The position numbers and the translations under genes are program-made. Shown one piece after another: positions 1,470 through 25,248 of a stretch of DNA of 64,000 nt (the stretch's first letter is position 1; each line of letters starts with the position of its first letter). Source of the stretch: a virus. Taxonomy: Duplodnaviria > Heunggongvirae > Uroviricota > Caudoviricetes. The notes beneath the pieces were generated by a model. That model saw nothing but the letters and a program-made list of their open reading frames with translations, was not told the DNA's origin and searched no databases. The DNA lies in the IMG/VR virus record IMGVR_UViG_3300021976_000008, positions 25,164 to 89,163 of that record; one strand, given 5' to 3'.

Positions 1470-4400
1470 GTGGGTAGCGTCTCCGGGCTCGCCAGAGTCC
1501 TGAAGTCCTCTCGATCGCCTGTCCGGCTCTCCAACCTCATGGAGTTCCGGGGCACGGCCTGGGAGGCGATGAGTGACTACTTCTTTGGCGTTTCCGCCGT
1601 TGACTACGAGTGGTCTGACGTCGCTGATGAGAACCGGCTGACGAAGTGGGTCTACACCCAGGACGGCGTCGCCGTTAGCGACGCGACCGTCGATCCCGCC
1701 CTTCACGAGCTTGACATTGGGTTAACCGCTGGTCCGGACCCGATCTCCAACCAGCGTGAGATGTATACGATCCCCGAGACGGCGACCTGGGGCATCGCTC
1801 ACGCTCTCGTGGAGATCAAGGGAGAGGCGTACGAGGCTGGGATGGCGCTACCCCAGCACGGTATTGGGTTGCGAGCGCAGGAGGACACCGTCCGACGTGC
1901 GATCGTCGCTTGGCATGACGTCTTCATTGGCAATCCGCACGCGATCAACGTAGGGGTCTGGCAGGGCAACCTGGACGGCTCCGGCTTCACGAACCGGCAG
2001 GGCAACGCCAACCTCGATCTCAAGCAGATATACAACATCCTTTCCGGCGCTCGCGTCGGAGGGACGGTCACGGCTGTCACCAATGTGGCGCACGGGATGG
2101 TGGTCGATGACTATTTGAACATCTCTTGGACCCGGGAGTTTGCCGGGGCCACCCTGAACCGGGCAAGCAACGTTGTCACGGCGACGCTCGGCAGCGGCCA
2201 CCAGATGCAAGCCGGGGATATCGCTTTCTTGTTCGGTGCTGGGTCGTTCAGTGGCACCCATACCGTGACGAGTGCCAACGCCACGCAGGTGTTCTGGGCG
2301 CAAGTGGGCGCCAACGAAGGCGGGTCCGGGACTGTCAAGGATCGCTCTAGCGATGTCCGTCAGGTACAAGTCACCGAGATAGTCAACTCCACCACGTTCC
2401 GCTACGTGGACGGCAAGCACGACCTCACCAACCTCGGTACGTCGACCACTGCGAACGAGCGGCTGTTCCCCTACTTCATGGAGATGCGAGTCTCCGGCAC
2501 CGTGGTCCAGGTTCGCTGTTGGAGCCGACACCAGAGCATCCCTGTTTGGAACGAGCCCACCCGTAGCTTCAACATCGACCTCGACAAGGCGGACCGCGTC
2601 TACACGGTCACCGCTGGCAGTCGCACCTCGGGAATCTCCACCCTCACGATCGGAGCCCACGACTTCGCTGTTGGAAACATCATCACCGTCGATGTCACCG
2701 ATGCGAGTGGCGATGTCGCCAATGGATTTGTCACCGGGATCACCGCCACCGAGGTCCGGTATTGGAACCCAGGGACGGACAACGGCACCCTCGGCACGGG
2801 GACATGCACCCGCCACGGTGGAGCCACGACCGCTGCCGACATAGCAACCATCCCGACTCCTCGTGGCTCGGGGCGTGTCGCTGTCGCCGCGGCGCACGAG
2901 GGAATCACTCAGATCTCCCATTGTTCCTACGGGACGATCGTCGGCTCCAACTCCTACGACAGCAACCTCTTGCCGGTCTCAGCCACCGGAGTCTTCGGAT
3001 TCACCGGGGTCGCGTCGGGAGTGGTTCGGGTTGTAGGAGCTGGTGTCGGGTCATTCGGGTTTACCGGCACGGCTGCCGGCAGGCCACGGGTTGTGGCCGC
3101 GGCTACCGGCAGCTTCGGCTTCACGGGTGTAGCGAGTGGCATCACGAGAGTACGTGGCGCTGCTACGGGTAGCTTCGGGTTCGCTGGTGCCGCTTCTGGT
3201 GTGGTCCGGAAGCTTGGTGCAGCCACGGGGCTGTTTGGGTTCACCGGATCTGCGAGTGGCGAGACGGTGAGTGGCCCTGTGACCGGTAGTGGCACGGGCC
3301 TCTTCGGATTTACAGGTGCTGCTAGTGGTGGTGTCAGGAAGCTGGGCGCCGCATCTGGCTCCTTCGGCTTTACCGGAATTGCCGCCGGTAGACCTCGGGT
3401 CGTGGGAGCGGCTACGGGGAGCTTTGGCTTCACTGGTATAGCGAGCGGACGTCCTCGCGTGGTCGGTGTAGCTGTCGGCAGCTTTGGCTTCATTGGTGTA
3501 GCCGGCGGACACCCTCGTGTGTTCGGGGTGGCTGTAGGTAGCTTCGGTTTCACTGGTGTTGCGCAAGGACGGACGCCAGCCTTCGTATCCTCACATCGCT
3601 GGGCTCCGACAACCGAAGAGATCCTTGACCTCGACGGCGTGAGACGCCGCATCGACCGCTTCCGCTTCGAGCTATGCGATCGCGAGCTGAATCCGATCGG
3701 CGAACTCCATCCCGATCGAAGCGGGACCGTCCCGCAGATCCAGAACGACGCCTCGGACAACACGTCTCGTCGTCTGACCGGTCTCAAGCTAACCCCTGAT
3801 GAGTCCAGCGAAGTCAATACCCTCACCGACCGTCTGCGTGTCTACATGACATTGCAGAATGACGTCGAGTTCCGTCTCGGCACGTTCCTCTGGGCCGATG
3901 ACAGTCGGCCCGAACGGTCTTGGGGTAGCGAGCAGAACGCCGAGCTGGTGGATTTCAGCTACATCCTTAGCCAGCCATCGGCTACCGCCTATGGCTGGGG
4001 TAAGAACGCCACGATTTCGCTGATCATCTACTTCCTCATGTTCCGGGCTGGTTTCTCTCTTGAGGACATCGCCGTTGTTGGAGATGAGGCCAACCGTGGC
4101 CTAGCTGACCCTAAGACATGGGAGCCCGGAGCCACGTGGCTTCAAATGCTCACGGATATCGGGGCGGTGGTCGGATTTACGGCGCCATGGTTCGATCGAG
4201 ATGGGCGAGTCCACTTTGACCAGGCGCCGAACCCAGACGTAGATCGCGTCAGCATCCCCAGCTATGACACTGACACCAGGATCATAGCTGACTCGATTGT
4301 CCGATCAGACGACATGCTGGCCGCCCCAAACATCTTCACCGTCTACGACTCAGGCTCCGACCGACTCCGCTCGGGGACTTACGAGATTCCCTCCTCTGCC

Positions 4401-4682
4401 CCGCACAGCTTCGCTAAGCGAGGCTTCCGGATCGCCAAGGTCGAATCGGTGCAGGGTTTGAGTAATCAGACCATAGCGAATCAGGCCGCCCGCAACCTCG
4501 CCCGCAGTGGCGACGCGTTCGAGTGGTTGACATTCAGCTCGACCGCCGACCCTCGCCACGAGACCCTTGATGTCATAGAGGCGTTTGGTGAGCGATGGCT
4601 CGAAACAGCGTGGACCCTCGAACTTCGTTCTGGCGGGGCGATGCAACACACGATGAAGCGAGTCACCTATGACGTTGTCTGA
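1470..4682 (+). CDS. minor tail protein, 1070 aa, with 13 tandem Gly-rich ~20-aa repeats (GSFGFTGvASG..RVvGAA)
   Basis: Very large ORF in tail region; internal 60-bp DNA tandem repeats; C-terminal globular domain. Confidence 0.7.
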   Translation: MGSVSGLARVLKSSRSPVRLSNLMEFRGTAWEAMSDYFFGVSAVDYEWSDVADENRLTKWVYTQDGVAVSDATVDPALHELDIGLTAGPDPISNQREMYTIPETATWGIAHALVEIKGEAYEAGMALPQHGIGLRAQEDTVRRAIVAWHDVFIGNPHAINVGVWQGNLDGSGFTNRQGNANLDLKQIYNILSGARVGGTVTAVTNVAHGMVVDDYLNISWTREFAGATLNRASNVVTATLGSGHQMQAGDIAFLFGAGSFSGTHTVTSANATQVFWAQVGANEGGSGTVKDRSSDVRQVQVTEIVNSTTFRYVDGKHDLTNLGTSTTANERLFPYFMEMRVSGTVVQVRCWSRHQSIPVWNEPTRSFNIDLDKADRVYTVTAGSRTSGISTLTIGAHDFAVGNIITVDVTDASGDVANGFVTGITATEVRYWNPGTDNGTLGTGTCTRHGGATTAADIATIPTPRGSGRVAVAAAHEGITQISHCSYGTIVGSNSYDSNLLPVSATGVFGFTGVASGVVRVVGAGVGSFGFTGTAAGRPRVVAAATGSFGFTGVASGITRVRGAATGSFGFAGAASGVVRKLGAATGLFGFTGSASGETVSGPVTGSGTGLFGFTGAASGGVRKLGAASGSFGFTGIAAGRPRVVGAATGSFGFTGIASGRPRVVGVAVGSFGFIGVAGGHPRVFGVAVGSFGFTGVAQGRTPAFVSSHRWAPTTEEILDLDGVRRRIDRFRFELCDRELNPIGELHPDRSGTVPQIQNDASDNTSRRLTGLKLTPDESSEVNTLTDRLRVYMTLQNDVEFRLGTFLWADDSRPERSWGSEQNAELVDFSYILSQPSATAYGWGKNATISLIIYFLMFRAGFSLEDIAVVGDEANRGLADPKTWEPGATWLQMLTDIGAVVGFTAPWFDRDGRVHFDQAPNPDVDRVSIPSYDTDTRIIADSIVRSDDMLAAPNIFTVYDSGSDRLRSGTYEIPSSAPHSFAKRGFRIAKVESVQGLSNQTIANQAARNLARSGDAFEWLTFSSTADPRHETLDVIEAFGERWLETAWTLELRSGGAMQHTMKRVTYDVV
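2984..3575 (+). repeat. about 10-13 copies of a 60-bp tandem repeat encoding GSFGFTG(V/I)ASG..R(V/K)(V/L)GAA(T/V)
   Basis: Directly visible periodicity in DNA and protein (ggtagcttcgggttcaccggt... motif). Confidence 0.8.
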
Positions 4683-6495
4683 GCGGAGCATCGCCAGGAT
4701 CATTCGTCGGGCTGTCAAGTCGGCGATCGCTGAAGCTGTCTCGACGGCTCGGGTGTCGACGCAGCTCTCCGGCACTGTTGAGCAGGTGGACGAAGATCTC
4801 GATGTTGTCTGGGTTCGCATGGACAACGAGGTACTCGGCGCCGACCCCATGCAGTCGCTCAACTACGAGGCCCCTGGCATCGTTCCCGCGACGCGCCTGG
4901 GAGAGACCTTCACCGACGAACAGGTTCGAGTCACCTTCGATGGCCCTGCCGGTGCGACGGCTCAGCGCACCAGCGTCGAGAACCGGATCGTGCTGCCTTT
5001 CGGTGCTGAAGGTGAGCGCATCGTTCTTGACGGTGAAGAGGGAGCGATTGGCTTCTATGACATCGACGGTGATCTGGTCGGGTACCTGGACCCGGCTCAA
5101 TGGTTCATTGGCAAGTCTGGTGAATCTCTGCTCCGACTCGACCCCCTAGGCGGGCTTCGCCTGCGGGACAGCAACGACATCCTCAGGGCACAGCTCTCGG
5201 CCCCTGAGGGGCTCGTCATCTCAGACCCAGTAAGCGGCATCTCGGGCCTGATCGCCAACCACGACGGCCTGATGATCCTCGACCCGGCGACCGGGGAGCG
5301 GATCTCGATCACGAGTGGAGGAACGTCAGGCACGCCGACGCCGAGCTGGGCTGGGACCGTGGCGCTCAGTCCCGGCGCCACGCACAGCACGCCAGCGGTC
5401 ACTGACTTCGGGACGGGCGACGATCTCGATATCCGCTTCACGGCGTGCTCGGCCGCCGCCAACCTGGGCGCCCAGAGCTACACCCCGCCCGCCGGATGGA
5501 CCGAGCAGACCGATCAGAACGTGTCGGCGAGCGGGATCACGTTGGGATCCTCGTGCGCGACCAAGGACCCCGCGGACGCCGTGCCGGGCGTGGCCAACTT
5601 CACCAACACATCCGCAGCGTTCACGCGACGCAACGGTCATAGCGTCATCGTTCGAGGCGGAGGCGGGGTCTCGCCCGCCTTTCGCTCCGCCAGCACCGAG
5701 GCCGTCGTTTCCACCGCTGCATCCATCGGGTTCGACATTGACGCTCCGGCCGGGCTAGCTGCTGGCGACCTGGCCCTGGCGCACGTCTCTATCGCATCCA
5801 ACCGAGTCCCGATCGGCTGGACCGTGCCGGATGGCTGGAAGCAGGTCGGGATCGTGGTCGCTGGCCTCGGGACCACCCACATCCTCGCCTCGGGGATCTG
5901 GTACATCCAGGCGCCCGCCTCGCCCCCCTCGATGGAGCACGTCGCCATCAACATGGGCTCGACCGGACTTACCCGAGTGCAGGCCACCGTCGTGGCCATC
6001 AGCGATCCCTATGAGTTCCCGACTGGGCTCGACATCCGCCAGGGCAACCGGTCGATGCCAAGAGGTCTGATGGGTGAGGCAATCGGGACCTCCACTACCA
6101 CGAACTGGGCGAACGCCGCGCTACCGCAGACCGTCGAGACGATCAGCAACGTGGATCTGCTGGCCGGTCGGAGCTACAAGATCGCCTACGACGTCCCGAA
6201 CTACACGTTCAACGGGATCAGTTCTGCTTCTCGCTTCGCTATCGACATTGAGATGGACACGGGGTCGGGGTTCACGCTCTTCCATACGATCATCGCTCGA
6301 TCCATGAGCGTGGCCGGCACGGAAAACGGACCAGCGAGCGGCAGCATCTCCTATGTTCCAGCGGGGAATGAGACGATCAGCCTGCGTAGCCGGGTACGAC
6401 AGATAGCCGCTGGGACCGGTTTCAACATCCAGTTGAGCGGCTCGGCCCAGGCTCGCAGATGGCTCTATATCGAGGACACGGGCGCGGTGTTCTAG
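4669..6495 (+). CDS. minor tail protein (608 aa)
   Basis: Large Ser/Thr/Gly-rich ORF overlapping the upstream tail gene stop; position in the tail-gene block. Confidence 0.6.
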   Translation: MTLSERSIARIIRRAVKSAIAEAVSTARVSTQLSGTVEQVDEDLDVVWVRMDNEVLGADPMQSLNYEAPGIVPATRLGETFTDEQVRVTFDGPAGATAQRTSVENRIVLPFGAEGERIVLDGEEGAIGFYDIDGDLVGYLDPAQWFIGKSGESLLRLDPLGGLRLRDSNDILRAQLSAPEGLVISDPVSGISGLIANHDGLMILDPATGERISITSGGTSGTPTPSWAGTVALSPGATHSTPAVTDFGTGDDLDIRFTACSAAANLGAQSYTPPAGWTEQTDQNVSASGITLGSSCATKDPADAVPGVANFTNTSAAFTRRNGHSVIVRGGGGVSPAFRSASTEAVVSTAASIGFDIDAPAGLAAGDLALAHVSIASNRVPIGWTVPDGWKQVGIVVAGLGTTHILASGIWYIQAPASPPSMEHVAINMGSTGLTRVQATVVAISDPYEFPTGLDIRQGNRSMPRGLMGEAIGTSTTTNWANAALPQTVETISNVDLLAGRSYKIAYDVPNYTFNGISSASRFAIDIEMDTGSGFTLFHTIIARSMSVAGTENGPASGSISYVPAGNETISLRSRVRQIAAGTGFNIQLSGSAQARRWLYIEDTGAVF

Positions 6496-6980: not shown

Positions 6981-7829
6981 ATGGGAACCCTTGCCGGTCA
7001 TCGGTATCTGACGCGAGCTGAGTGGGTAGCCCGTCCCCCCACTTCGCCGTTTGCCCACATGCCGTCATTGCCGACTCCCCGCTTGTGGATTCACCACTCG
7101 GGCGACGATCGGCAGGGCGCTGCGGCGGTACGAGGTCATCAGCAGTATCACCAGAACACTCGGGACTGGAAGGACATCGCCTACAACTTCCTGGTCGACG
7201 ACGACGGCATCATCTATGAGGGCCGTGGCGCCGGCATCGCTGGTGGAGCGACCGAGGGCGACAACTCGAAGTCCCATGCCATCTGCCTGCTCGGCAACTT
7301 CGAGAACCGCCCTGTCACTTCGAGAGCCTGGCAGGCGACGGTCGACCTCGCTCGACACGGCCGCGATCGCGGTTGGTGGAAGCCGACCTGCGGCGGTCAC
7401 CGCGATGCCCCTGGTGCCCAGACCTCCTGTCCTGGCCGCCTTCTCTACAACCGGCTGCCCGACATGCGCCGCGAGGTCGTCAGTGGCGCCACCATCGCAT
7501 CCGAGCCCCCTGCTGCACCGGAGGAACCTGACATGACCCCAGAAGAGTGTCGCACCGTGGTGCGCGCCGAGAACCAGCGTCTCGCGCAGTACCTCATGAC
7601 CGGAGCAGGCAATCAGGCGTTCAACCCGAACATCCAGAAGTGGATGGCAGCAGCGACTACCTTGCCCCGGCTCTTTGCCGCTGTCCGCGCCGAAGGCACT
7701 GACGTCGATGAGGCGGAGATCGCTGCGCTCGTGCTCGCTGGGCTCAGCCCGCAGGCGATCGCCGATGCGATCCCTGCTGTCATCGCTGTTGAGGTGGTCG
7801 ATCTGCTGGCTGCGCGTCTGGCCGGTTGA
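6981..7829 (+). CDS. lysA: endolysin, N-acetylmuramoyl-L-alanine amidase (PGRP/Amidase_2 domain) with C-terminal extension
   Basis: PGRP-like motifs HHSGDD..YNFLVDDDGIIYEGRG..GHRD..C; located directly after tail genes. Confidence 0.8.
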   Translation: MGTLAGHRYLTRAEWVARPPTSPFAHMPSLPTPRLWIHHSGDDRQGAAAVRGHQQYHQNTRDWKDIAYNFLVDDDGIIYEGRGAGIAGGATEGDNSKSHAICLLGNFENRPVTSRAWQATVDLARHGRDRGWWKPTCGGHRDAPGAQTSCPGRLLYNRLPDMRREVVSGATIASEPPAAPEEPDMTPEECRTVVRAENQRLAQYLMTGAGNQAFNPNIQKWMAAATTLPRLFAAVRAEGTDVDEAEIAALVLAGLSPQAIADAIPAVIAVEVVDLLAARLAG

Positions 7830-8204
7830 GTGATCATCGCCGTCGGCCTAATAGCGGCTGGCCTAATGGAGCCGATCACCATTGTCGCGCTCATTGGCGC
7901 AAGCTCGACGCTGCTCAGTGCAGCGTTCGCCGCGTGGGCGGCGGTCAAACAGCGCCGCACCGAGGACGTCAGGCTCGGCTATGACGCCATGCGTTCCGCC
8001 CTGGACAACTACCGCACCGACAACGTCGATCTGCGGGGCCGAGTGGAGAAGGCCGACGTTCGTATCTATAACGCTGAGCAGCGCGTCTACACCGCGGAAC
8101 AGCGAATGATTGATCTCATCTCAAAGGTCGATCGATGTGAAGCGGACAAGGCTGTTCTTGGCGAGAAGGTCGCCGATCTCGAACGGAGGGCATCTGGTGC
8201 CTAG
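7830..8204 (+). CDS. holin-like membrane protein (N-terminal TM helices, C-terminal coiled coil)
   Basis: GTG start abutting the lysin stop; hydrophobic N-terminus MIIAVGLIAAGLMEPITIVALIGASSTLL. Confidence 0.5.
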   Translation: MIIAVGLIAAGLMEPITIVALIGASSTLLSAAFAAWAAVKQRRTEDVRLGYDAMRSALDNYRTDNVDLRGRVEKADVRIYNAEQRVYTAEQRMIDLISKVDRCEADKAVLGEKVADLERRASGA

Positions 8205-9798: not shown

Positions 9799-9987
9799 GT
9801 GACCCGGCGAAGGCTTGACCCGAAGGGCAGCCTGCCGGACTTTCCCTGGCTCTACAAGAACCCCAAGGCCTTCACCAATAGTCCGTCGAGGTACTCGCGG
9901 CGGTGCTCTTGGTGCAACGAGCCTTTCTGGATTCTCAAGAACATGTTCCGAGTCTGCCCCAAATGCGACATGAGTGAGGGTGAGTGA
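9799..9987 (+). CDS. zinc-ribbon protein (62 aa)
   Basis: CxxC...CxxC pairs; GTG start after upstream stop. Confidence 0.45.
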   Translation: MTRRRLDPKGSLPDFPWLYKNPKAFTNSPSRYSRRCSWCNEPFWILKNMFRVCPKCDMSEGE

Positions 9988-9988
9988 G

Positions 9989-10903
9989 ATGGCTCGCATC
10001 GGAATCGATCTCGACGGTTGCGTCTACAACTTCGTAGCCGCTCTCCGCAACTATCGCTCTTCGAAGGGCGTCTCATTCGAGTCGATGCCCGAGCCGACAT
10101 CTTGGGAGGTGTGGCGCGACTGGGGAATAACCAAGGAAGAGTTCATCCAGGCGCAGATCGACGCCGAGGCTGTCGGGCTCTTCCACCAGGGTCAAGCGTA
10201 CTTCGGAGCCATTGAAGCCTTGAAGCAGCTCAAAGAGGCTGGGCACTCCATCCACATCATCACCCACCGCCTGCGTCCGGCTGCTCAGACGAGCACGATC
10301 GGATGGCTCAACGCCAACGACGTCCCCTACGACACGCTCACCTTCACTGGGGAGAAGGGCGGCTACCCGGTCGATATCTGCATCGAGGACAACATCGACA
10401 ACGCCCGCGCCATCGAAGCATCGGGCGTTCCGTGCGTCCTTATGAACCGTAGCTGGAACTCTCGCGACACCTGGAGTCGACGTGTCGTCTTCTGGCATCA
10501 GTTCGTGGAGCTGGTACGCAAAGAGGACGTCCTCCTCCGTACGGCTCGCCCGGCTACAGGCGAGGTCCGTGAGACCTCGCCGACTGGTGGAGAGAAAGGC
10601 TCGAAGCCCGAGCAATACTCGATGATCCCGGTAGCCGCTCTGGCTGAGGTGGCCCGAGTCTACGCGATGGGCGCCGATAAGTACTCGCGAGACAACTGGC
10701 GCAAGGGATACCCATGGCACCTGTCCTACGACGCCCTACAGCGCCACATCAACTCCTTCTGGGCCGGGCAGGACTTCGACACCCAGAGCGGGCTCCACCA
10801 CCTTGCCCATGCGACCTTCCATCTCTTCGCTCTCATGACCTATGGCGGAGATCTTGAGAAGTATGCGCAGTACGACGACCGCTATCGGGAGGTGTCGGGA
10901 TGA
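9989..10903 (+). CDS. fusion protein: HAD-type 5'(3')-deoxyribonucleotidase-like N-domain plus dATP/dGTP diphosphohydrolase-like C-domain
   Basis: N-term IGIDLDGCVYNF (HAD motif I); C-term WRKGYPW..SYDALQRH..HHLAHATFHL resembles dGTP_diPhyd_N family. Confidence 0.55.
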   Translation: MARIGIDLDGCVYNFVAALRNYRSSKGVSFESMPEPTSWEVWRDWGITKEEFIQAQIDAEAVGLFHQGQAYFGAIEALKQLKEAGHSIHIITHRLRPAAQTSTIGWLNANDVPYDTLTFTGEKGGYPVDICIEDNIDNARAIEASGVPCVLMNRSWNSRDTWSRRVVFWHQFVELVRKEDVLLRTARPATGEVRETSPTGGEKGSKPEQYSMIPVAALAEVARVYAMGADKYSRDNWRKGYPWHLSYDALQRHINSFWAGQDFDTQSGLHHLAHATFHLFALMTYGGDLEKYAQYDDRYREVSG

Positions 10904-11136: not shown

Positions 11137-11503
11137 GCCCAACCCCACTCACATCACTCGCTACGAGAGCGAGAGCCACGGTACGAAAGACAGCCAGGGA
11201 ACGCCGTGGCGGTCTTCCCACTACGACCACGGGATCAACGTGCCGGCGGAGTACACGGACGAGATCCGACGCAAGGGGTTCGTTCGAGTCGATGAGACCA
11301 ACGCTGACTACTGGGGTCGCTTGCTCGACGAGCAGGACGATGGCCGTGGCGTCGGCTGGACCGATGGGTACCGGCGGATGGTGGAGAGTCGAGCCGGCGA
11401 CGAGGGGCTCCACTCGGTGCGGACGTGGACCGTTGGCCACATCGTCTGGCCCGGCAAGGCCGACGAGGCATGCAGGGACTGTTCTTATCGGGGAGAAGCG
11501 TGA
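11120..11503 (+). CDS. hypothetical protein (127 aa)
   Basis: ATG at codon 59 of the longer ORF; protein-like composition from MAGSRKPNP. Confidence 0.45.
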   Translation: MAGSRKPNPTHITRYESESHGTKDSQGTPWRSSHYDHGINVPAEYTDEIRRKGFVRVDETNADYWGRLLDEQDDGRGVGWTDGYRRMVESRAGDEGLHSVRTWTVGHIVWPGKADEACRDCSYRGEA

Positions 11504-12102
11504 TGCGACCCGGCGTCACGGTCGTGATTCCGACCATCCCACCTCGCGTTGACATGCTCGAACGCGCTATCCGCTCGACCATGCTTCAGACAAGGTCACC
11601 AGAGGCCCTCAGCGTCGCCCTGGACCTCTCGCACGAGGGCGCGGGTCCCACAAGGACCCGAGCCCTCCGCAACGTCTCTACGGAGTTCAGCGCCTTCCTA
11701 GACGACGACGACTACCTCTATCCCAACCACCTCGAAACGCTCATGGCCGTGCAGGAGCAGACAGGCGCCCTCGTCTGTTGGTCATGGTGGGACGGGAACC
11801 GAGTCTGGGACTACGAGTGCGAGGAACGGCGCTGCCCGGATAACTGCCATCGACACAAGGCGATGGACTTCGAGCACCCGCACCTCTTCGGGATCACCTA
11901 CCTGGTGAACACGGAACTCGCACAGCAGTGCGAGTTCCCCGGACCGGAGCCTGGCGAGGAGTTCTATGGCAACGAGGACTACCACTTCCTTCTACAACTG
12001 ACCAAGCTTACCAAGCCGAGCGACTGGGCTCACGATCCCCGGATCACCTGGCACTACTCCGTCCACGGGGGCAACACGAGCGGCCGAGGCGACCGATGGT
12101 GA
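11503..12102 (+). CDS. glycosyltransferase family 2
   Basis: VTVVIPTIPPRVDMLERAIRS...AFLDDDD (GT-A DxD) ; start overlaps upstream stop. Confidence 0.75.
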   Translation: MRPGVTVVIPTIPPRVDMLERAIRSTMLQTRSPEALSVALDLSHEGAGPTRTRALRNVSTEFSAFLDDDDYLYPNHLETLMAVQEQTGALVCWSWWDGNRVWDYECEERRCPDNCHRHKAMDFEHPHLFGITYLVNTELAQQCEFPGPEPGEEFYGNEDYHFLLQLTKLTKPSDWAHDPRITWHYSVHGGNTSGRGDRW

Positions 12103-12746
12103 GCATCTCCGTCGTCGTGCCGAGCATCCCGCCTCGGGTCGAGCAGCGCGCCGATATCCAAAGGCAGATCGAAGCGCAGACGCGTCCACCAGATGAGCTG
12201 ATCGTTTGGATAGACGAGGTTGGTGCAGGAGCCGCGGTTACTCGCAACATCGGAATGGCACAGGCCAGCTCTGAGTTCATCGCCTTCTTTGATGACGACG
12301 ACGAGATGTACCCCAATCATCTCGAACTGCTCGAACGCACGCAGCGGAGAACAAACGCCGACTTCGTCTACCCGTGGCACCACATCAGGCCCCCGATGCG
12401 CAATCCACTAGCGGTCTGCGGCGAAGATCCGTTCGGGCGACCATTCGATTACGCCGCGAGGCGACAGATCCTGCATGGCATCAACTTCATCCCGATAGCC
12501 GTGCTGGTCCGTCGCGAGCTGATGCTGAGCATCGGTGGCTTCCATGACTTCAAATTGGACGAATGGGACCCGGAGCGCTGCGAGATCCTCAACGCCTGGC
12601 AAAAGCTCCTACGAGCTGGGGCCTCCTTCGCCCACTGCCCATATAGGACGTGGGCCGCTGTGCGGAATGGCCAGAACACGGCCGGGCTCGGCTGGCGGGA
12701 ACACATCGGCACCAAGCAACGCGGCTACGACGAAGGAGACCGCTAG
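12096..12746 (+). CDS. glycosyltransferase family 2 (paralogue of previous)
   Basis: ISVVVPSIPPRV...AFFDDDDEMYPNHLE; ATGGTGA overlap. Confidence 0.75.
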   Translation: MVSISVVVPSIPPRVEQRADIQRQIEAQTRPPDELIVWIDEVGAGAAVTRNIGMAQASSEFIAFFDDDDEMYPNHLELLERTQRRTNADFVYPWHHIRPPMRNPLAVCGEDPFGRPFDYAARRQILHGINFIPIAVLVRRELMLSIGGFHDFKLDEWDPERCEILNAWQKLLRAGASFAHCPYRTWAAVRNGQNTAGLGWREHIGTKQRGYDEGDR

Positions 12747-13354
12747 TGCTGGAAGTCGTCCAGGAACCTTTCCCTCACGCCATCGTCGACGGCTACTGGG
12801 ATCAAGACCTTCTCCGCGACGTACGCGAAGAGATCTGTCTCATCGACGTCGCCCTCTGCCGCCGCTACAACAACGAACGCGAGAACAAGTACGACGCCGG
12901 GGTGCACCTGTTCGGAGCGCAGACGCGGGCGCTCTTCGATCAGATCCGCTCCTTGACTCCGCTACTCAGCGAAGCCTTCGGTGTCCCCGATCTGGAAATG
13001 GAGGAGAACAGCGGGTGTCACCTGATCCCCCCGGGCGGGTATCTCGCTGTCCACACTGACTGGAATCGCAGCCAGGTGACCAAGCTCTACCGGCGGCTGA
13101 ACCTCCTCATCTATCTCAATGAGGGATGGTCGGAGGAGGGGGGCTGCTTGCACATCGAGGGGGTCGATCCTCCGACGCTCATCCGCATCGAGCCCGAGTT
13201 CAACCGGATGGTCGCTTTCGAGGCAAGTGACCGGAGCTGGCATGGGCATCCGCTACCAGCGGAGCGGTGGCGCTTCAGCGCCGCCGGCTACTTCTCGTCA
13301 CCCGAGCCTCCTCCGGGCTACATGGAAGAGCACGACACGCTGTGGCTCCGATGA
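12746..13354 (+). CDS. 2OG-Fe(II) oxygenase superfamily protein (prolyl-4-hydroxylase-like)
   Basis: HTDWN..(Hx D) ...LNLLIYLNEGW...RMVAFEASDRSWHGHP (distal His, RxS). Confidence 0.65.
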   Translation: MLEVVQEPFPHAIVDGYWDQDLLRDVREEICLIDVALCRRYNNERENKYDAGVHLFGAQTRALFDQIRSLTPLLSEAFGVPDLEMEENSGCHLIPPGGYLAVHTDWNRSQVTKLYRRLNLLIYLNEGWSEEGGCLHIEGVDPPTLIRIEPEFNRMVAFEASDRSWHGHPLPAERWRFSAAGYFSSPEPPPGYMEEHDTLWLR

Positions 13355-13983
13355 CCCATATCGCAGTCTGCATCCCGTCGATCGGCAAGTCCGGGCAGAT
13401 GCTCGATGACCTCATTGCCGTGTGTCGTGCGGAGCGAAGCGTCATCCACATCGGCGTCTACGACAACAGCGCAGATGGCTCCTGTGGTCAGGGGATGCCT
13501 CGCCCAGGCTGGACGATCTACGAGGAGTTCAACGAATTCGGCGAGCTGTGGAACAACCACGCACACATGGCCTACCTGAATGACGACATCGTCATGGCCC
13601 CCGGCACACTCGACGCTCTCGCTGCTGAGTTCGTAGGCAATGCTGACCTCGGACTCATATCCGTCGATCGTGACGAGGCACGAGCGAGGGTTCGGCCTAG
13701 TCGTGTACGGCGCACCGCTGGCACGGTGCGCCAGGGTGGCATCAACTCCTGGCTGTTCATGGTTAGGCGCTTCTGCTGGCCGGGAATCGATGAGCGATTC
13801 CAGGTGTGGTATGGGGACGATGATCTCATTTGGAAGATCAGAGAGCGAGACAAGGAAGTCGCTGTCCTCGAAGGTGTAAGCGTCGAGCATCGCCATTCGC
13901 TGACACTGAACACGATCCCCGGTGTCGGTGAACTGCAAGCTGCCGACGCGGATCTGTGGCATCGACAGATGGGGCGCCCGTGA
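13351..13983 (+). CDS. putative glycosyltransferase (GT-A-like)
   Basis: ATGA-coupled; N-terminal Rossmann-like start HIAVCIPSIGK and YGDDDL motif. Confidence 0.5.
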   Translation: MTHIAVCIPSIGKSGQMLDDLIAVCRAERSVIHIGVYDNSADGSCGQGMPRPGWTIYEEFNEFGELWNNHAHMAYLNDDIVMAPGTLDALAAEFVGNADLGLISVDRDEARARVRPSRVRRTAGTVRQGGINSWLFMVRRFCWPGIDERFQVWYGDDDLIWKIRERDKEVAVLEGVSVEHRHSLTLNTIPGVGELQAADADLWHRQMGRP

Positions 13984-14600
13984 TCGGCTACGGAATTTGC
14001 GTTGGCTCGTGGGACAAGTTCCATCGCTACATCGCGCCGAAGGTCAGAGATCGACCCGTCATCGCCATGTCGGGACAGAAGTCGATCAGCATCGCATACA
14101 ACAAGATCCTCAACGAGTTCTACGACTACGACCCAGAGCTTGAGGCCGTCGTGTTGCTGCATGACGACCTTGAGATGGCAGACACCCACGTCGAGGAGAA
14201 GATCCGAGCGGCGATCGAACCCGACGTTGGGCTTATCGGCGTAGCCGGCGGCGGACCAAGCATGTGGTGGTGGAACCATGACCCGATCGGCCATCAGATA
14301 ACTGACACTCGCCTGCTTGAGTTTGGCAATAGGCGCTCCGGTGACGTCGCCATGATCGAAGGCAGCTTCATGGTGTTCACCCGCCGGGCGGTCAAGTGTC
14401 TTCGATTTGATGAGCGCTACGAGTTCTTGGGCTACGACGATATCTGTCTACATGCTCGGGAGATCGAGCTGCGTGTGGTGGTCGCTGACATCACCACCCA
14501 CCATCACTCGACCCTTGGCTTCAAATCGAAAGAGGTCGAGGCGATGTGGAAGCGATCCGAGCGGATCTTCGAGTCCAAATGGGGAAGGCCCCATGACTGA
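13980..14600 (+). CDS. glycosyltransferase (GT-A fold)
   Basis: VIGYGICVGSWDKF...VVLLHDDLEM...GYDDICL motifs; GTGA coupling. Confidence 0.6.
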   Translation: MIGYGICVGSWDKFHRYIAPKVRDRPVIAMSGQKSISIAYNKILNEFYDYDPELEAVVLLHDDLEMADTHVEEKIRAAIEPDVGLIGVAGGGPSMWWWNHDPIGHQITDTRLLEFGNRRSGDVAMIEGSFMVFTRRAVKCLRFDERYEFLGYDDICLHAREIELRVVVADITTHHHSTLGFKSKEVEAMWKRSERIFESKWGRPHD

Positions 14601-14838
14601 AGACTGTCGCTGTATCTGCTACTGCGAGCACACGCTAAGCGAGCACGGCGAGGGCATCTTCGGTCGTCCATGTCTAAAGGACTGCTACTGCTCAGCGTTC
14701 GAGCGCTACCTCGAAAACGACGCTGAGCCCTGCGGGAAGCACCCCGGCTGCGGCGTCCATCTCGACGGCTGGTGCTACTGCGGTGACATCGATGCCAGCG
14801 GGCACGCCATGGTCTGCGCGGAGTGCTTCGATGGCTAA
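14593..14838 (+). CDS. Cys-rich small protein (81 aa, 12 Cys)
   Basis: MTEDCRCICYCEH...; embedded in glycosylation operon by ATGA coupling. Confidence 0.5.
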   Translation: MTEDCRCICYCEHTLSEHGEGIFGRPCLKDCYCSAFERYLENDAEPCGKHPGCGVHLDGWCYCGDIDASGHAMVCAECFDG

Positions 14839-15796
14839 GCGAGTCCTGGTCACAGGCGGCCGGGGCTTCGCCGGCCGCCACACGATCGAGCATCTGCTTG
14901 CTACGACGGATTGGCACATCACCACGCTCGAACGGCCACGGCACCAGCCGTCCATCAGCGATCGCCTCGTGCAACTGCCACACGATCTACGCAAGCCGAT
15001 CCCCGACTGGCTGAGCGAGGATTGGATCGGCCACGTGGATGCGGTGATCCACCTCGCCGCCTCGGCGGATGTGCATCAGTGCTTAAAGGCCCCGTCTGAG
15101 CACGTGCTCAACAACGTGGGTGGCGTACTGACAATGCTCGAATGGGCACGCTCACGGCGCCTGAGCCACTTCGTGCTGGTATCGACCAACGAAGTCTACG
15201 GGCCGACCCTCGTCGGCCCGGACGGGAAGAAGGAGTGGTCGCCGATCATTCCCGCGACGCCCTACTCCGGCAGCAAGGCGGCGCAGGAAGCACTGGCGAT
15301 CTCGTGGTGGCGAACGTTCGATGTTCCCGTCGTCATCACCAACACGATGCAGCTCTTTGGCATTGGGCAACCGAACGAGCGATTCATCCCGACTGTCGTC
15401 AGGCACTTGACGCGAGGCGAGCCCGTACCGGTCTATGCCCTCTGGACCGGCAGCGAATGGCGTTCGGCTAGTCGATGCTGGACCTATGTCAACAACCACG
15501 CTGACGCCCTCAGATGGATTCTGAGCCGCGGGCCTCAAGCCTCGCCTTCGCGCCCCGCTCGATGGAACATCGCTGGCCCAGAGTTGAGCTGTGAGCGACT
15601 CGTGCGGCGCATCGCTGAGCTGCTTGGAGTCGAACCGGAGTTCGAGTTTGTCGAGAGTGACACCGCTCGTCCTGGCCATGAGCTGAGGTACTCGCTCGAC
15701 ACCACGAAGATCCATGACGCGGGTTGGAGCGAGCCATTCGACTTCGATTACGCGTTGGCGGAGACCGTAACGGAACTAGCGAGGGGAAAGCGATGA
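14831..15796 (+). CDS. NAD-dependent epimerase/dehydratase (NDP-sugar 4,6-dehydratase/4-epimerase family)
   Basis: VLVTGGRGFAGRH (GxxGxxG) and YSGSKAAQE (YxxxK) catalytic motifs. Confidence 0.8.
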   Translation: MAKRVLVTGGRGFAGRHTIEHLLATTDWHITTLERPRHQPSISDRLVQLPHDLRKPIPDWLSEDWIGHVDAVIHLAASADVHQCLKAPSEHVLNNVGGVLTMLEWARSRRLSHFVLVSTNEVYGPTLVGPDGKKEWSPIIPATPYSGSKAAQEALAISWWRTFDVPVVITNTMQLFGIGQPNERFIPTVVRHLTRGEPVPVYALWTGSEWRSASRCWTYVNNHADALRWILSRGPQASPSRPARWNIAGPELSCERLVRRIAELLGVEPEFEFVESDTARPGHELRYSLDTTKIHDAGWSEPFDFDYALAETVTELARGKR

Positions 15797-16989
15797 AGCG
15801 CCATTTCTGTGCCGCCTGCGGCTACGACAACCTTGAGATGTTCCTCGACCTCGGGCTGTCGCCAATCGCCGATGCCTATACGAGCGAGCCACGCGAGGTC
15901 AGTCCTCGATTCCCGCTTCAGGTGGGGGTCTGCACGGGCTGCTGGCTCGTGCAGCTCTTGGAAGTCGTTGACCATCAGATCCTGTTTGGCACCGGCTACA
16001 GCTTCTACAGCTCTGCATCGGCGCCGCTCTCGGCTTACCACGAGGACTACGCCACCGATGTCCTGAAGGATTTCCGTCCTTTGGCAGAACGGCTGACTGT
16101 CGAGATCGGATGCAACGACGGCGACATGCTGTATCACTTCGCCGAGGCGGGATGCAGGGTACTAGGAGTCGACCCGGCCTCTGGGCCGGTGTCGGTCGCT
16201 CGCACCCACGGGCTCGATGTCCGAGAAGAGCCGTTCTGCCTGAACACCGCTAAGCAGATCGTCGGCGAGCATGGCCCGGCCGGCGTCGTCATTGCCAACC
16301 ACGTCCTCGCTCATGTCGAGTCGGTGAGCGGTGTCCTTGAGGGCATTGCCTATCTACTGGCCGACGATGGCATTGCTTTCATCGAGGTGCAGTACCTGCC
16401 GGACCTCCTCGTGAACAATGCCTTCGATCTCATCTACCACGAGCACCGCAACTTCTTCTCGCTCACGAGCCTGACAAGCGCCCTAAGCCAATGGGACCTA
16501 CACGTAGCCAAGGTCGAGCTGACCGACCGACAGGGGGGCTCTCTTCGTGTCTGCGTCACCAAGCGGCCAGGCCACAACTCCGGCAGCGATCGCATCATTG
16601 CCAAGGAAGCCTGGCTCAATCAGGTCGGGGTCTACCGCGGGTTCCAGGGGCGAATCGAGCGCATCCGAGATCGACTGCTCGACCTGATCCACGGTGAGTT
16701 CGAGGGGCAATGCGTCGCTGGCTACGGCGCCCCGGCCAAGGCGACCACGCTTCTCAACTACTGCTCGTTGACCGACAGCGACATCAGCTTCGTGATCGAC
16801 TCCACGGCCGCCAAGCAAGGCCGCTACATCCCGGGCACGGGCATCCTGATCGTCAGTCCAGAGACCCCAATTGACTCTGCCGACGCGATGCTTCTTTTGA
16901 GTTGGAATTACTCCGCGCAGATCATCCGCAACAACGCCGACTATCGAGGTAAGTGGATCATCCCGATCCCGGCACCGATGGTCCTATGA
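15793..16989 (+). CDS. NDP-hexose C-methyltransferase (TylC3-like: Zn-ribbon N-domain, class I SAM MTase, C-MTase C-domain)
   Basis: CAACGYDNLEMFLDLGLSPIADAY N-terminal zinc domain; GCNDGDML SAM motif; C-terminal GYGAPAKATTLLNYC. Confidence 0.75.
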   Translation: MKRHFCAACGYDNLEMFLDLGLSPIADAYTSEPREVSPRFPLQVGVCTGCWLVQLLEVVDHQILFGTGYSFYSSASAPLSAYHEDYATDVLKDFRPLAERLTVEIGCNDGDMLYHFAEAGCRVLGVDPASGPVSVARTHGLDVREEPFCLNTAKQIVGEHGPAGVVIANHVLAHVESVSGVLEGIAYLLADDGIAFIEVQYLPDLLVNNAFDLIYHEHRNFFSLTSLTSALSQWDLHVAKVELTDRQGGSLRVCVTKRPGHNSGSDRIIAKEAWLNQVGVYRGFQGRIERIRDRLLDLIHGEFEGQCVAGYGAPAKATTLLNYCSLTDSDISFVIDSTAAKQGRYIPGTGILIVSPETPIDSADAMLLLSWNYSAQIIRNNADYRGKWIIPIPAPMVL

Positions 16990-25059: not shown

Positions 25060-25248
25060 CCAGCGCCATCTGGCCCTAGCTTTACCCCTGTCGTCAGTAC
25101 GGCGGCAATCCATCATCAACACCAACTGAATGCCGATTCCGTAGAACACCCGCCCAGGCGGGTGTTCTACGTTTGTATCTCCGTGACTCGGAGAGCCCCG
25201 GGCGATCGTATGAACGCCAGCTCGGATGTCGTCCGGTAGACGCGGAAA

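Follow-up and report, generated by a model that had tools for sequence, protein, structure and literature searches.

A tandem 20-residue repeat array in a phage fibre-type protein fused to a gp27-like tail hub

The stretch of DNA analysed here (the window; 64,000 nucleotides (nt), positions 25,164 to 89,163 of the Caudoviricetes record IMGVR_UViG_3300021976_000008 of IMG/VR) contains an open reading frame (ORF) of 1070 amino acids (aa) with a tandem array of Gly-rich 20-aa repeats. The question raised by the locus is what such an array does in a tail protein. An earlier note on the sequence had proposed that it is recombination-prone and could vary between isolates; it might also bind the host surface, or serve as a structural part of the tail. 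In the 1070-aa ORF a fibre-type protein and a tail-tip hub are fused into one translation product. The array is best explained as a beta-rich structural stalk or spacer, which joins a module resembling lectins and carbohydrate-binding modules (CBMs) to the hub and came to this position when a fibre cassette was captured and fused; we give this reading a probability of roughly 0.55.

Anatomy and divergence of the array

An in-frame tandem repeat of 20 aa and 60 nt had been noticed in the 1070-aa protein, and it is present at the place described, with its limits refined to nt 2988-3596. The parts of the ORF needed here are the following:

1470-4682, plus strand: fusion ORF, 1070 aa with a GTG start (from the ORF list and translation)
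1470-2987, plus strand: N-terminal module, aa 1-506, predicted to be all-beta and multi-domain with a ConA/CBM-like jelly roll inside
2988-3596, plus strand: repeat array, aa 507-709, ten tandem FGF-anchored units
2988, 3048, 3108, 3168, 3228, 3297, 3357, 3417, 3477 and 3537, plus strand: starts of the ten units
3228-3296, plus strand: unit 5, the 23-aa variant GLFGFTGSASGETVSGPVTGSGT, equal to the long unit of the repeat family (..SGxxGtPPVTG..) that recurs every fifth unit
3537-3596, plus strand: unit 10, GSFGFTGVAQGRTPAFVSSH, of the long type ('AQG'), truncated and running into the hub

Nine of the ten units are 20 aa long and one, unit 5, has 23 aa. The array consists of two super-repeats of five units each (103 aa and 309 nt), in which units 5 and 10 represent the long type. 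Unit 10 is interrupted by the hub fusion: its pattern degenerates after about 12 residues, at the junction with the next domain. Thirteen units had been counted earlier, but the number is ten, and the span of 592 nt given for the thirteen accommodates only 9.9 x 60 nt.

The periodicity of the array is far above chance. Amino-acid identity at lag 20 was 0.57, compared to 0.14 ± 0.024 in 5000 shuffles (z = 18), and at the other lags from 15 to 26 it did not exceed 0.19. Also the DNA identity at lag 60 (0.56) was distinct from that of the neighbouring lags (0.28-0.36). Glycine occupies unit positions 1, 4, 7, 11 and 17, so that no sustained G-X-Y triplet is formed, and the Pfam Collagen family was not matched; neither did the array match any curated repeat or beta-helix family. 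The statements of the earlier note that the units are neither collagen nor typical beta-helix repeats are thereby upheld. On the minus strand two ORFs overlap the array (2954-3826, 290 aa; 3051-3566, 171 aa), and these are taken as by-products of the GC-rich repetitive sequence because all the homology evidence favours the gene on the plus strand.

The eight regular units share on average 67% of their amino acids in pairwise comparisons (range 50-90%) and 58% of their nucleotides (47-80%). Divided by codon position, the identity between units was 70, 73 and 31%, the chance level of the third position being 27%. The longest exact DNA word common to two units was 13 nt, and Tandem Repeats Finder reported just 2.3 copies at 81%. 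With the synonymous sites of the units saturated, the array is old and its protein pattern is kept by purifying selection. The units have diverged at the DNA level and are therefore a poor substrate for homologous recombination. The copies had been called near-identical and, on that ground, recombination-prone; the identities above do not fit the first description, and with it the premise of the second falls. Near-identical DNA copies, typical of hypervariable or contingency repeats, were not found.

The array of P0002 (locus L001), the closest relative with the same repeat, shows a similar degree of divergence, with a mean DNA identity of 57% and a maximum of 72% between units. Within the window array, blocks 309 nt apart were 56-57% identical, which equals the identity at lag 60, and one 92-nt stretch reached 79%. 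The idea that the full super-repeat of 309 nt had been duplicated recently was rejected, as the identity at lag 309 was no higher than that at lag 60. The number of units is ten here, 17-19 in P0002 and 6-20 among 60 family proteins in which at least six units were called. Three assemblies of the phage gave one identical 1070-aa product, and all three may stem from the same sample. Of the copy-number variation suggested earlier, the part that stands is a difference between relatives over evolutionary time, while the assemblies at hand give a single product.

Fusion of the fibre-type protein to the hub

Structure modelling indicates that the C-terminal domain is a gp27-like baseplate hub. The AF2 model, made with a 48-sequence alignment, had a mean predicted local distance difference test score (pLDDT) of 89.3 and a predicted template modelling score (pTM) of 0.81. 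Foldseek matched it to PDB entries with a probability of 1.00, E-values from 5e-14 to 1e-8 and query-normalised template modelling (TM) scores of 0.56-0.67; the entries included Mu gp44, MuSo2, T4 gp27 hubs, VgrG, the 80alpha baseplate and the Listeria prophage gp18 tail protein, among others. For the last 361 aa, 91 homologues (P0018-P0108) were found at identities up to 86%, and nearly all of them are standalone proteins of 360-367 aa starting with M..WAPTTE. In its fold the C-terminal part of 365 aa agrees with tail-associated lysins and baseplate hubs (T4 gp27, Mu gp44, 80alpha Tal and the N-terminal region of VgrG; query-normalised TM 0.57-0.67), and as in those systems the gene belongs to the tail-tip block, downstream of the tape-measure gene and of the gene at the Dit position. 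Known 'evolved' Tal proteins, however, begin with the gp27-like domain and carry their extensions behind it, whereas here an extension of 705 aa precedes the hub. The earlier label 'minor tail protein' is correct in that this is a tail protein with a shaft-like repeat, but it understates a fibre-type protein fused to a gp27-like hub.

The features at and around the junction are:

3585-4682, plus strand: predicted gp27/Mu gp44-like baseplate hub (Tal) domain, aa 706-1070 (AF2 and Foldseek)
3577-3587, plus strand: fusion junction CAGCCTTCGTA, from the DNA alignment with CAGCCTTAGTG of L009
2-274, plus strand: Gp80-type fibre gene (PF23140, Pfam E = 4.5e-14), represented by its 3' portion and the first gene of the cassette; the full gene of 135 aa is present in L013 and L014
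271-534 (87 aa) and 612/678-1466 (263/284 aa), plus strand: cassette genes (tblastn synteny and gene tables)
4669-6495, plus strand: gene of 608 aa whose start overlaps the hub gene, 62-74% identical in L007 and L009

In the relatives closest by the hub, the gene order is tube protein, chaperones, tape measure, a gene of 814-819 aa, hub (364 aa), a gene of 604-641 aa and amidase; the 604-641-aa gene is followed directly by the amidase in L009, and a 79-aa gene lies between the two in L010 and L011. The 608-aa gene of the window corresponds to this conserved partner after the hub. In the window phage (L013) the order is tape measure (1204 aa), 828-aa gene, then the Gp80-type gene, two small genes, the 263-aa gene and the fusion gene, and after these the 608-aa gene, the 79-aa gene and amidase. 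The comparison of these gene orders places the insertion of the fibre cassette exactly at the border of the 828-aa gene with that of the hub. The 87-aa and 263/284-aa ORFs precede the gene of the N-terminal domain and repeat in every relative examined, and neither had a match in Pfam or PHROG. In other loci the same cassette lies ahead of the terminase genes or comes last in the tail block.

Traces of the former gene boundary remain at the junction. In CAGCCTTAGTG of L009 the stop codon of the upstream 819-aa gene overlaps the GTG start of the hub gene. The window junction keeps CAGCCTT beside a GTG-to-GTA change, and the former start codon of the hub is now the GTA at 3585-3587 (Val706). At the left edge of the cassette (L013 8374-8385) the 828-aa gene ends with GAGCCTTGA, so that AGCCTT flanks the inserted cassette at both ends, in GAGCCTTGA and in CAGCCTTCGTA. 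Judged from these sequences, the shared motif suggests that the cassette entered the gene boundary by way of microhomology. Inspection by eye of 3477-3640 showed, just upstream of the hub, no start codon in frame that was preceded by an evident Shine-Dalgarno sequence. An assembly chimera at the join was also considered and is unlikely, as the same in-frame join came from three assemblers and the remnants of the old gene boundary are kept.

Among the inspected proteins of the repeat family, only the window protein is fused to a tail hub. Other kinds of N-terminal additions, 100-240 aa in length, occur in the hub-family proteins P0059, P0061, P0062, P0072, P0081, P0088 and P0090. They join the hub at one and the same motif, W(A/V/S)P(T/S)T, and P0072 has a weak match to CBM_4_9. 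It seems, by sequence, that binding modules have repeatedly been grafted onto the N-terminus of the hub.

The N-terminal module and the repeat family

The N-terminal domain was modelled with confidence, and its structural matches were to CBMs, lectins and phage receptor-binding proteins. They include CBM66, the CBM2 of the evolved Dit of phage J-1, many lectins and GH16 enzymes. One of the comparable phage proteins, Douge gp23, has a domain D2 given as 'BppU - CBM' (PMC13033339). Identity of the N-terminal module to the Douge gp23 BppU, the receptor-binding domain of TM4 gp23 and the J-1 evolved Dit CBM2 is just 5-7%, and the whole architecture of about 460 aa has no global match (Foldseek TM about 0.1), in which it differs from the CBM/lectin baseplate proteins of actinophages and lactophages. 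The first 40 aa are strongly conserved in the family and were modelled at low confidence; they may form a docking peptide.

Homologues of the N-terminal part, P0002-P0017, are 34-77% identical over the first about 500 aa. All have the same layout of N-terminal domain, repeat array and short tail, and the final 360 aa of the window protein are found in none of them. The more distant ones, P0009-P0017, carry an additional inserted LamG-like domain, as read from their sequences. The arrays of these relatives belong to at least five sequence types with a period of about 20 aa (22-23 aa in one type). Besides the FGFTG type, the repeats of about 20 aa (P0003, P0005-P0017; loci L003, L004 and L006) include QAVETETAQPIxRVKxRxL, FxLPQAxESVxAGPAVIAxx, xRPLAGHADxA.. 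and TLTPAVITATATVQQPT... In hhalign comparisons the FGFTG type was not linked to the other types of these relatives, with the exception of the TFTFTG type of P0004 (97% probability), and some of the remaining types were linked to one another by weak signals. A scan of IMG/VR contigs with an alignment query found one locus of the P0003 type, and three single-query scans of genome and viral contigs gave no confirmed locus.

Outside these homologues the repeat of the window belongs to a family with the consensus (G/A)sFGFT(G/A)tAxGv(P/D)RxxGxAx and a 20-aa period, both of which are present in the window array. In many unrelated proteins a 23-aa variant (..A-s-G-x-x-G-t-P-P-V-T-G-x-A-x) stands at every fifth unit. 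This produces spacings such as 20 20 20 20 23 20 20 20 20 23 and a super-repeat of 103 aa, as in the window, and the units of the super-repeat keep position-specific flavours across the family. A hidden Markov model (HMM) built from 240 family units called nine of the ten FGF-anchored units of the window.

A phmmer search with the array among 1.84 billion cluster representatives gave 531 matches with E-values up to 1e-3, of which 193 reached 1e-10 or better, counts that are inflated by low-complexity matches such as P0218, an aggrecan-like eukaryotic protein (E = 1e-15). Of the 152 proteins examined, at least 88 had four or more HMM-called units. A word-indexed protein search with the repeat region found at least three proteins. 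Judged by these sequence searches the repeat is widespread, occurring in hundreds of phage-like protein clusters (50% identity). It had no significant match in Pfam (E ≤ 1), NCBIfam or PDB, either as a single sequence or as a 103-aa profile; the best PDB sequence matches (E ≥ 0.06) were chance matches to Ala/Gly-rich proteins, and PHROG 19249 ('minor tail protein') matched aa 605-703 weakly. No mention of the motif was found in the phage literature searched. In INPHARED neither the gene nor a 25-kb part of the window found a match at the DNA level, tblastn with the whole protein gave just distant Bacillus phage matches to the hub part, and tblastn with P0124 gave none.

Cultured members include the cyanophages Mel-JY03 and Mae-JY02 of Microcystis and Pan4 of Pseudanabaena, in which a Gly_rich_2 domain is followed by 20/23-aa units. 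Their consensus, 23-aa variant and five-unit spacing are identical to those of the window, and the partner domains differ. The Mel-JY03 protein WWT39611 (L008 5104-6993), annotated as 'glycerophosphodiester phosphodiesterase', consists of Gly_rich_2 and about fifteen 20/23-aa repeats and is, from its sequence, probably a misannotated tail protein. Two more members of the family were observed in phage structural modules. One of these, P0257 (L016 9001-9936, 311 aa), is encoded on an SU10-like podophage contig, with the portal gene on one side and the major capsid gene on the other, and the repeat may therefore occur also in head-associated or other non-tail-tip proteins. As for the host, related contigs carry DUF397 and HTH_31 genes, a hint of actinomycetes.

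The partner domains of the family include LamG_3, TIG, Gly_rich_2 and SGNH-like domains and others without assignment. In the 60 proteins with at least six units, the array is preceded by a globular N-terminal part with a median length of 241 aa, and the median distance of the array end from the C-terminus is 55 aa (within 80 aa in 47 of the 60). Domains on both sides of the array are found in P0190 (LamG-like and a C-terminal SGNH-like domain), P0109 and P0111.

Function of the array

The reading as a stalk joins these observations in the following way. A fibre cassette of four to five genes, comprising the Gp80-type gene, small genes, a gene of about 265 aa and the gene of the N-terminal domain and repeat, was inserted between the post-tape-measure gene and the hub gene. 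The fibre gene lost its short C-terminal tail and was joined in frame to the coding sequence of the hub, whose former GTG start is now GTA. Selection acts on the protein pattern, that is, Gly at positions 4, 11 and 17, Gly or Ala at 1 and 7, aromatics at 3 and 5, and Ala at 9 and 19. The length of the stalk would be set by the number of units; it would change only on an evolutionary time scale, probably block by block, and isolates would not often differ through recombination.

Four short beta segments are predicted in every unit (EEEE--E----EEE--EE), at FGFT, Ala 9, R-x-hydrophobic and Ala 19. A geometric role of the array is indicated by its constant period, exchangeable sequence and position between domains. 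As the C-terminal end of the array is covalently joined to the hub, the array would hold the lectin-like N-terminal module at a distance from the tail tip. We infer a rigid or semi-rigid stalk in which the four beta segments of the units stack in a solenoid-like manner and the N-terminal module forms the distal, glycan-binding end; the same applies to the oligomeric state of the array and to the polarity in the unfused relatives. In general terms such an arrangement is familiar: the beta shafts of phage fibres and adhesins have in common short Gly-punctuated beta repeats, which make up a long link from one functional domain to the next. Taken together, period and consensus correspond to none of the triple beta-spiral, the gp5-type triple beta-helix, the RTX beta-roll or the choline-binding and clostridial toxin repeats, and no HMM was matched. 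The period of 20 differs from the repeat of about 15 residues in the trimeric triple beta-spiral of adenovirus and reovirus, and the consensus differs from those of RTX (GGxGxD) and pentapeptide (A(D/N)LXX) repeats, neither of which was matched in Pfam.

Several points weigh against a stalk. The pLDDT of the array in the model is just 40-52, so that the fold is not established, and the repeat has no match to a solved structure or curated family in Pfam, NCBIfam or PDB. A possible docking peptide in aa 1-40 would place the N-terminus, instead of the C-terminal end of the array, close to the virion in the unfused relatives, and an N-terminal extension on a gp27-like hub reverses the usual Tal layout. 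The conserved aromatics and the TxT-like motif could equally form a binding surface.

The last of these points leads to the alternative that comes second, considerably less probable than a stalk: the array itself could be the adhesin, a beta-solenoid binding a repetitive cell-wall glycopolymer multivalently, with the long units making or spacing the sites. The 20-aa period with conserved aromatics at positions 3 and 5 and T6/T8, the regular interspersion of a longer unit, the frequent position of the array in the C-terminal part of tail proteins and the carbohydrate-binding types among the adjoining domains (LamG_3, CBM-like folds) would all suit such a function. The combined repetitive oligopeptides (CROPs) of clostridial toxins have a layout of short and long repeats, and CW_binding_1 repeats are 20 aa long; the period and the interspersed longer unit of the window array, whose modelled fold has a pLDDT of 40-52, recall these arrays. 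On the other hand, the repeat region matched neither CW_binding_1 nor any other Pfam family even at E ≤ 1, and the array lies between globular domains in the window protein, P0190, P0109 and P0111. Moreover, relatives with a common N-terminal domain have swapped in unrelated repeats of about 20-aa period, which argues against a sequence-specific ligand site.

Two structural alternatives are unlikely, both a little less favoured than the adhesin. The array may be the shaft of an obligate trimeric fibre, an intertwined beta-helix or beta-spiral, in which case the prediction of a monomer is meaningless. Low monomer pLDDT together with clear periodic beta propensity, as observed here, is typical of obligate trimers; the cassette also holds the gene of a Gp80-type fibre protein, and since gp27-like hubs are trimers, three copies of the array are present. 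However, in a trimeric hub the three N-termini face outwards from the axis, which is occupied by the tube, and it is not obvious how they could coalesce into one fibre. The other N-terminal additions in the hub family are single globular modules, and the 20-aa period is unlike the known repeats of trimeric shafts (15 aa in the triple beta-spiral, 8 aa in the gp5-type beta-helix). The second of the two, equally doubtful, is that the repeat represents an undescribed class of beta-solenoid fold with a true unit of 103 aa in five coils. Three arms would then stand on the N-termini of the hub trimer as a Tal of inverted polarity, with lectin-like heads or the sugar-binding solenoid itself displayed around the tail tip.

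The least probable reading is that of the earlier note, a contingency element changing fibre length or host range, or O-glycosylation sites for the glycosyltransferase cassette 7-12 kb downstream: copy number does differ among distant relatives and one pair of segments 309 nt apart is 79% identical over 92 nt, but the DNA identity of the units (mean 58%, third positions at chance, longest word 13 nt), the equally diverged array of L001 and the identical product of three assemblies speak against the former, and against the latter L001, which has the repeat, has no glycosyltransferase nearby, and substitutions of T6 across the family go to A or V (21%) more commonly than to S (8%). The pattern of substitutions in the T of FGFT looks structural, as judged from the sequences. 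The sugar cassette proposed as the partner of the repeat is real (11.4-17 kb), but the link between the two is not supported, as no sugar-modification genes were found within 10 kb in L001, the closest relative with the FGFTG repeat.

Some other genes of the window were observed alongside. The sugar-modification cassette (11425-16989) consists of three GT2-type glycosyltransferases, a 2-oxoglutarate (2OG)-Fe(II) oxygenase, a nucleoside diphosphate (NDP)-sugar epimerase/dehydratase and a C-methyltransferase. An ORF of 309 aa (9974-10903) contains an NT5C 5'-nucleotidase domain and the N-terminal domain of dATP/dGTP diphosphohydrolase (PF18909, E = 5.6e-30), and may be involved in the manipulation of the nucleotide pool or in modified DNA. 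Right after the Amidase_2 endolysin (6981-7829) is an ORF of 124 aa (7830-8204) with a weak match to the two-transmembrane family SLATT_1 (E = 0.0045), by its sequence possibly a holin-like membrane protein.

Repetitive beta shafts are as such well known from phage tail proteins; this particular repeat family, its 103-aa period and the fusion of a fibre to a hub are new variations on them. The family is uncurated and without a structure, and its conserved 103-aa period merits a new repeat family entry and a structure. For annotation and engineering, the array is a caution that repeats evident at the protein level need not be unstable at the DNA level. The gene itself shows the capture of a fibre cassette and its covalent grafting to the N-terminus of the hub, the opposite of an 'evolved Tal'. 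If arms do stand on the N-termini of the hub, this phage would build its receptor-binding arms on the hub itself and need no separate proteins to attach fibres.

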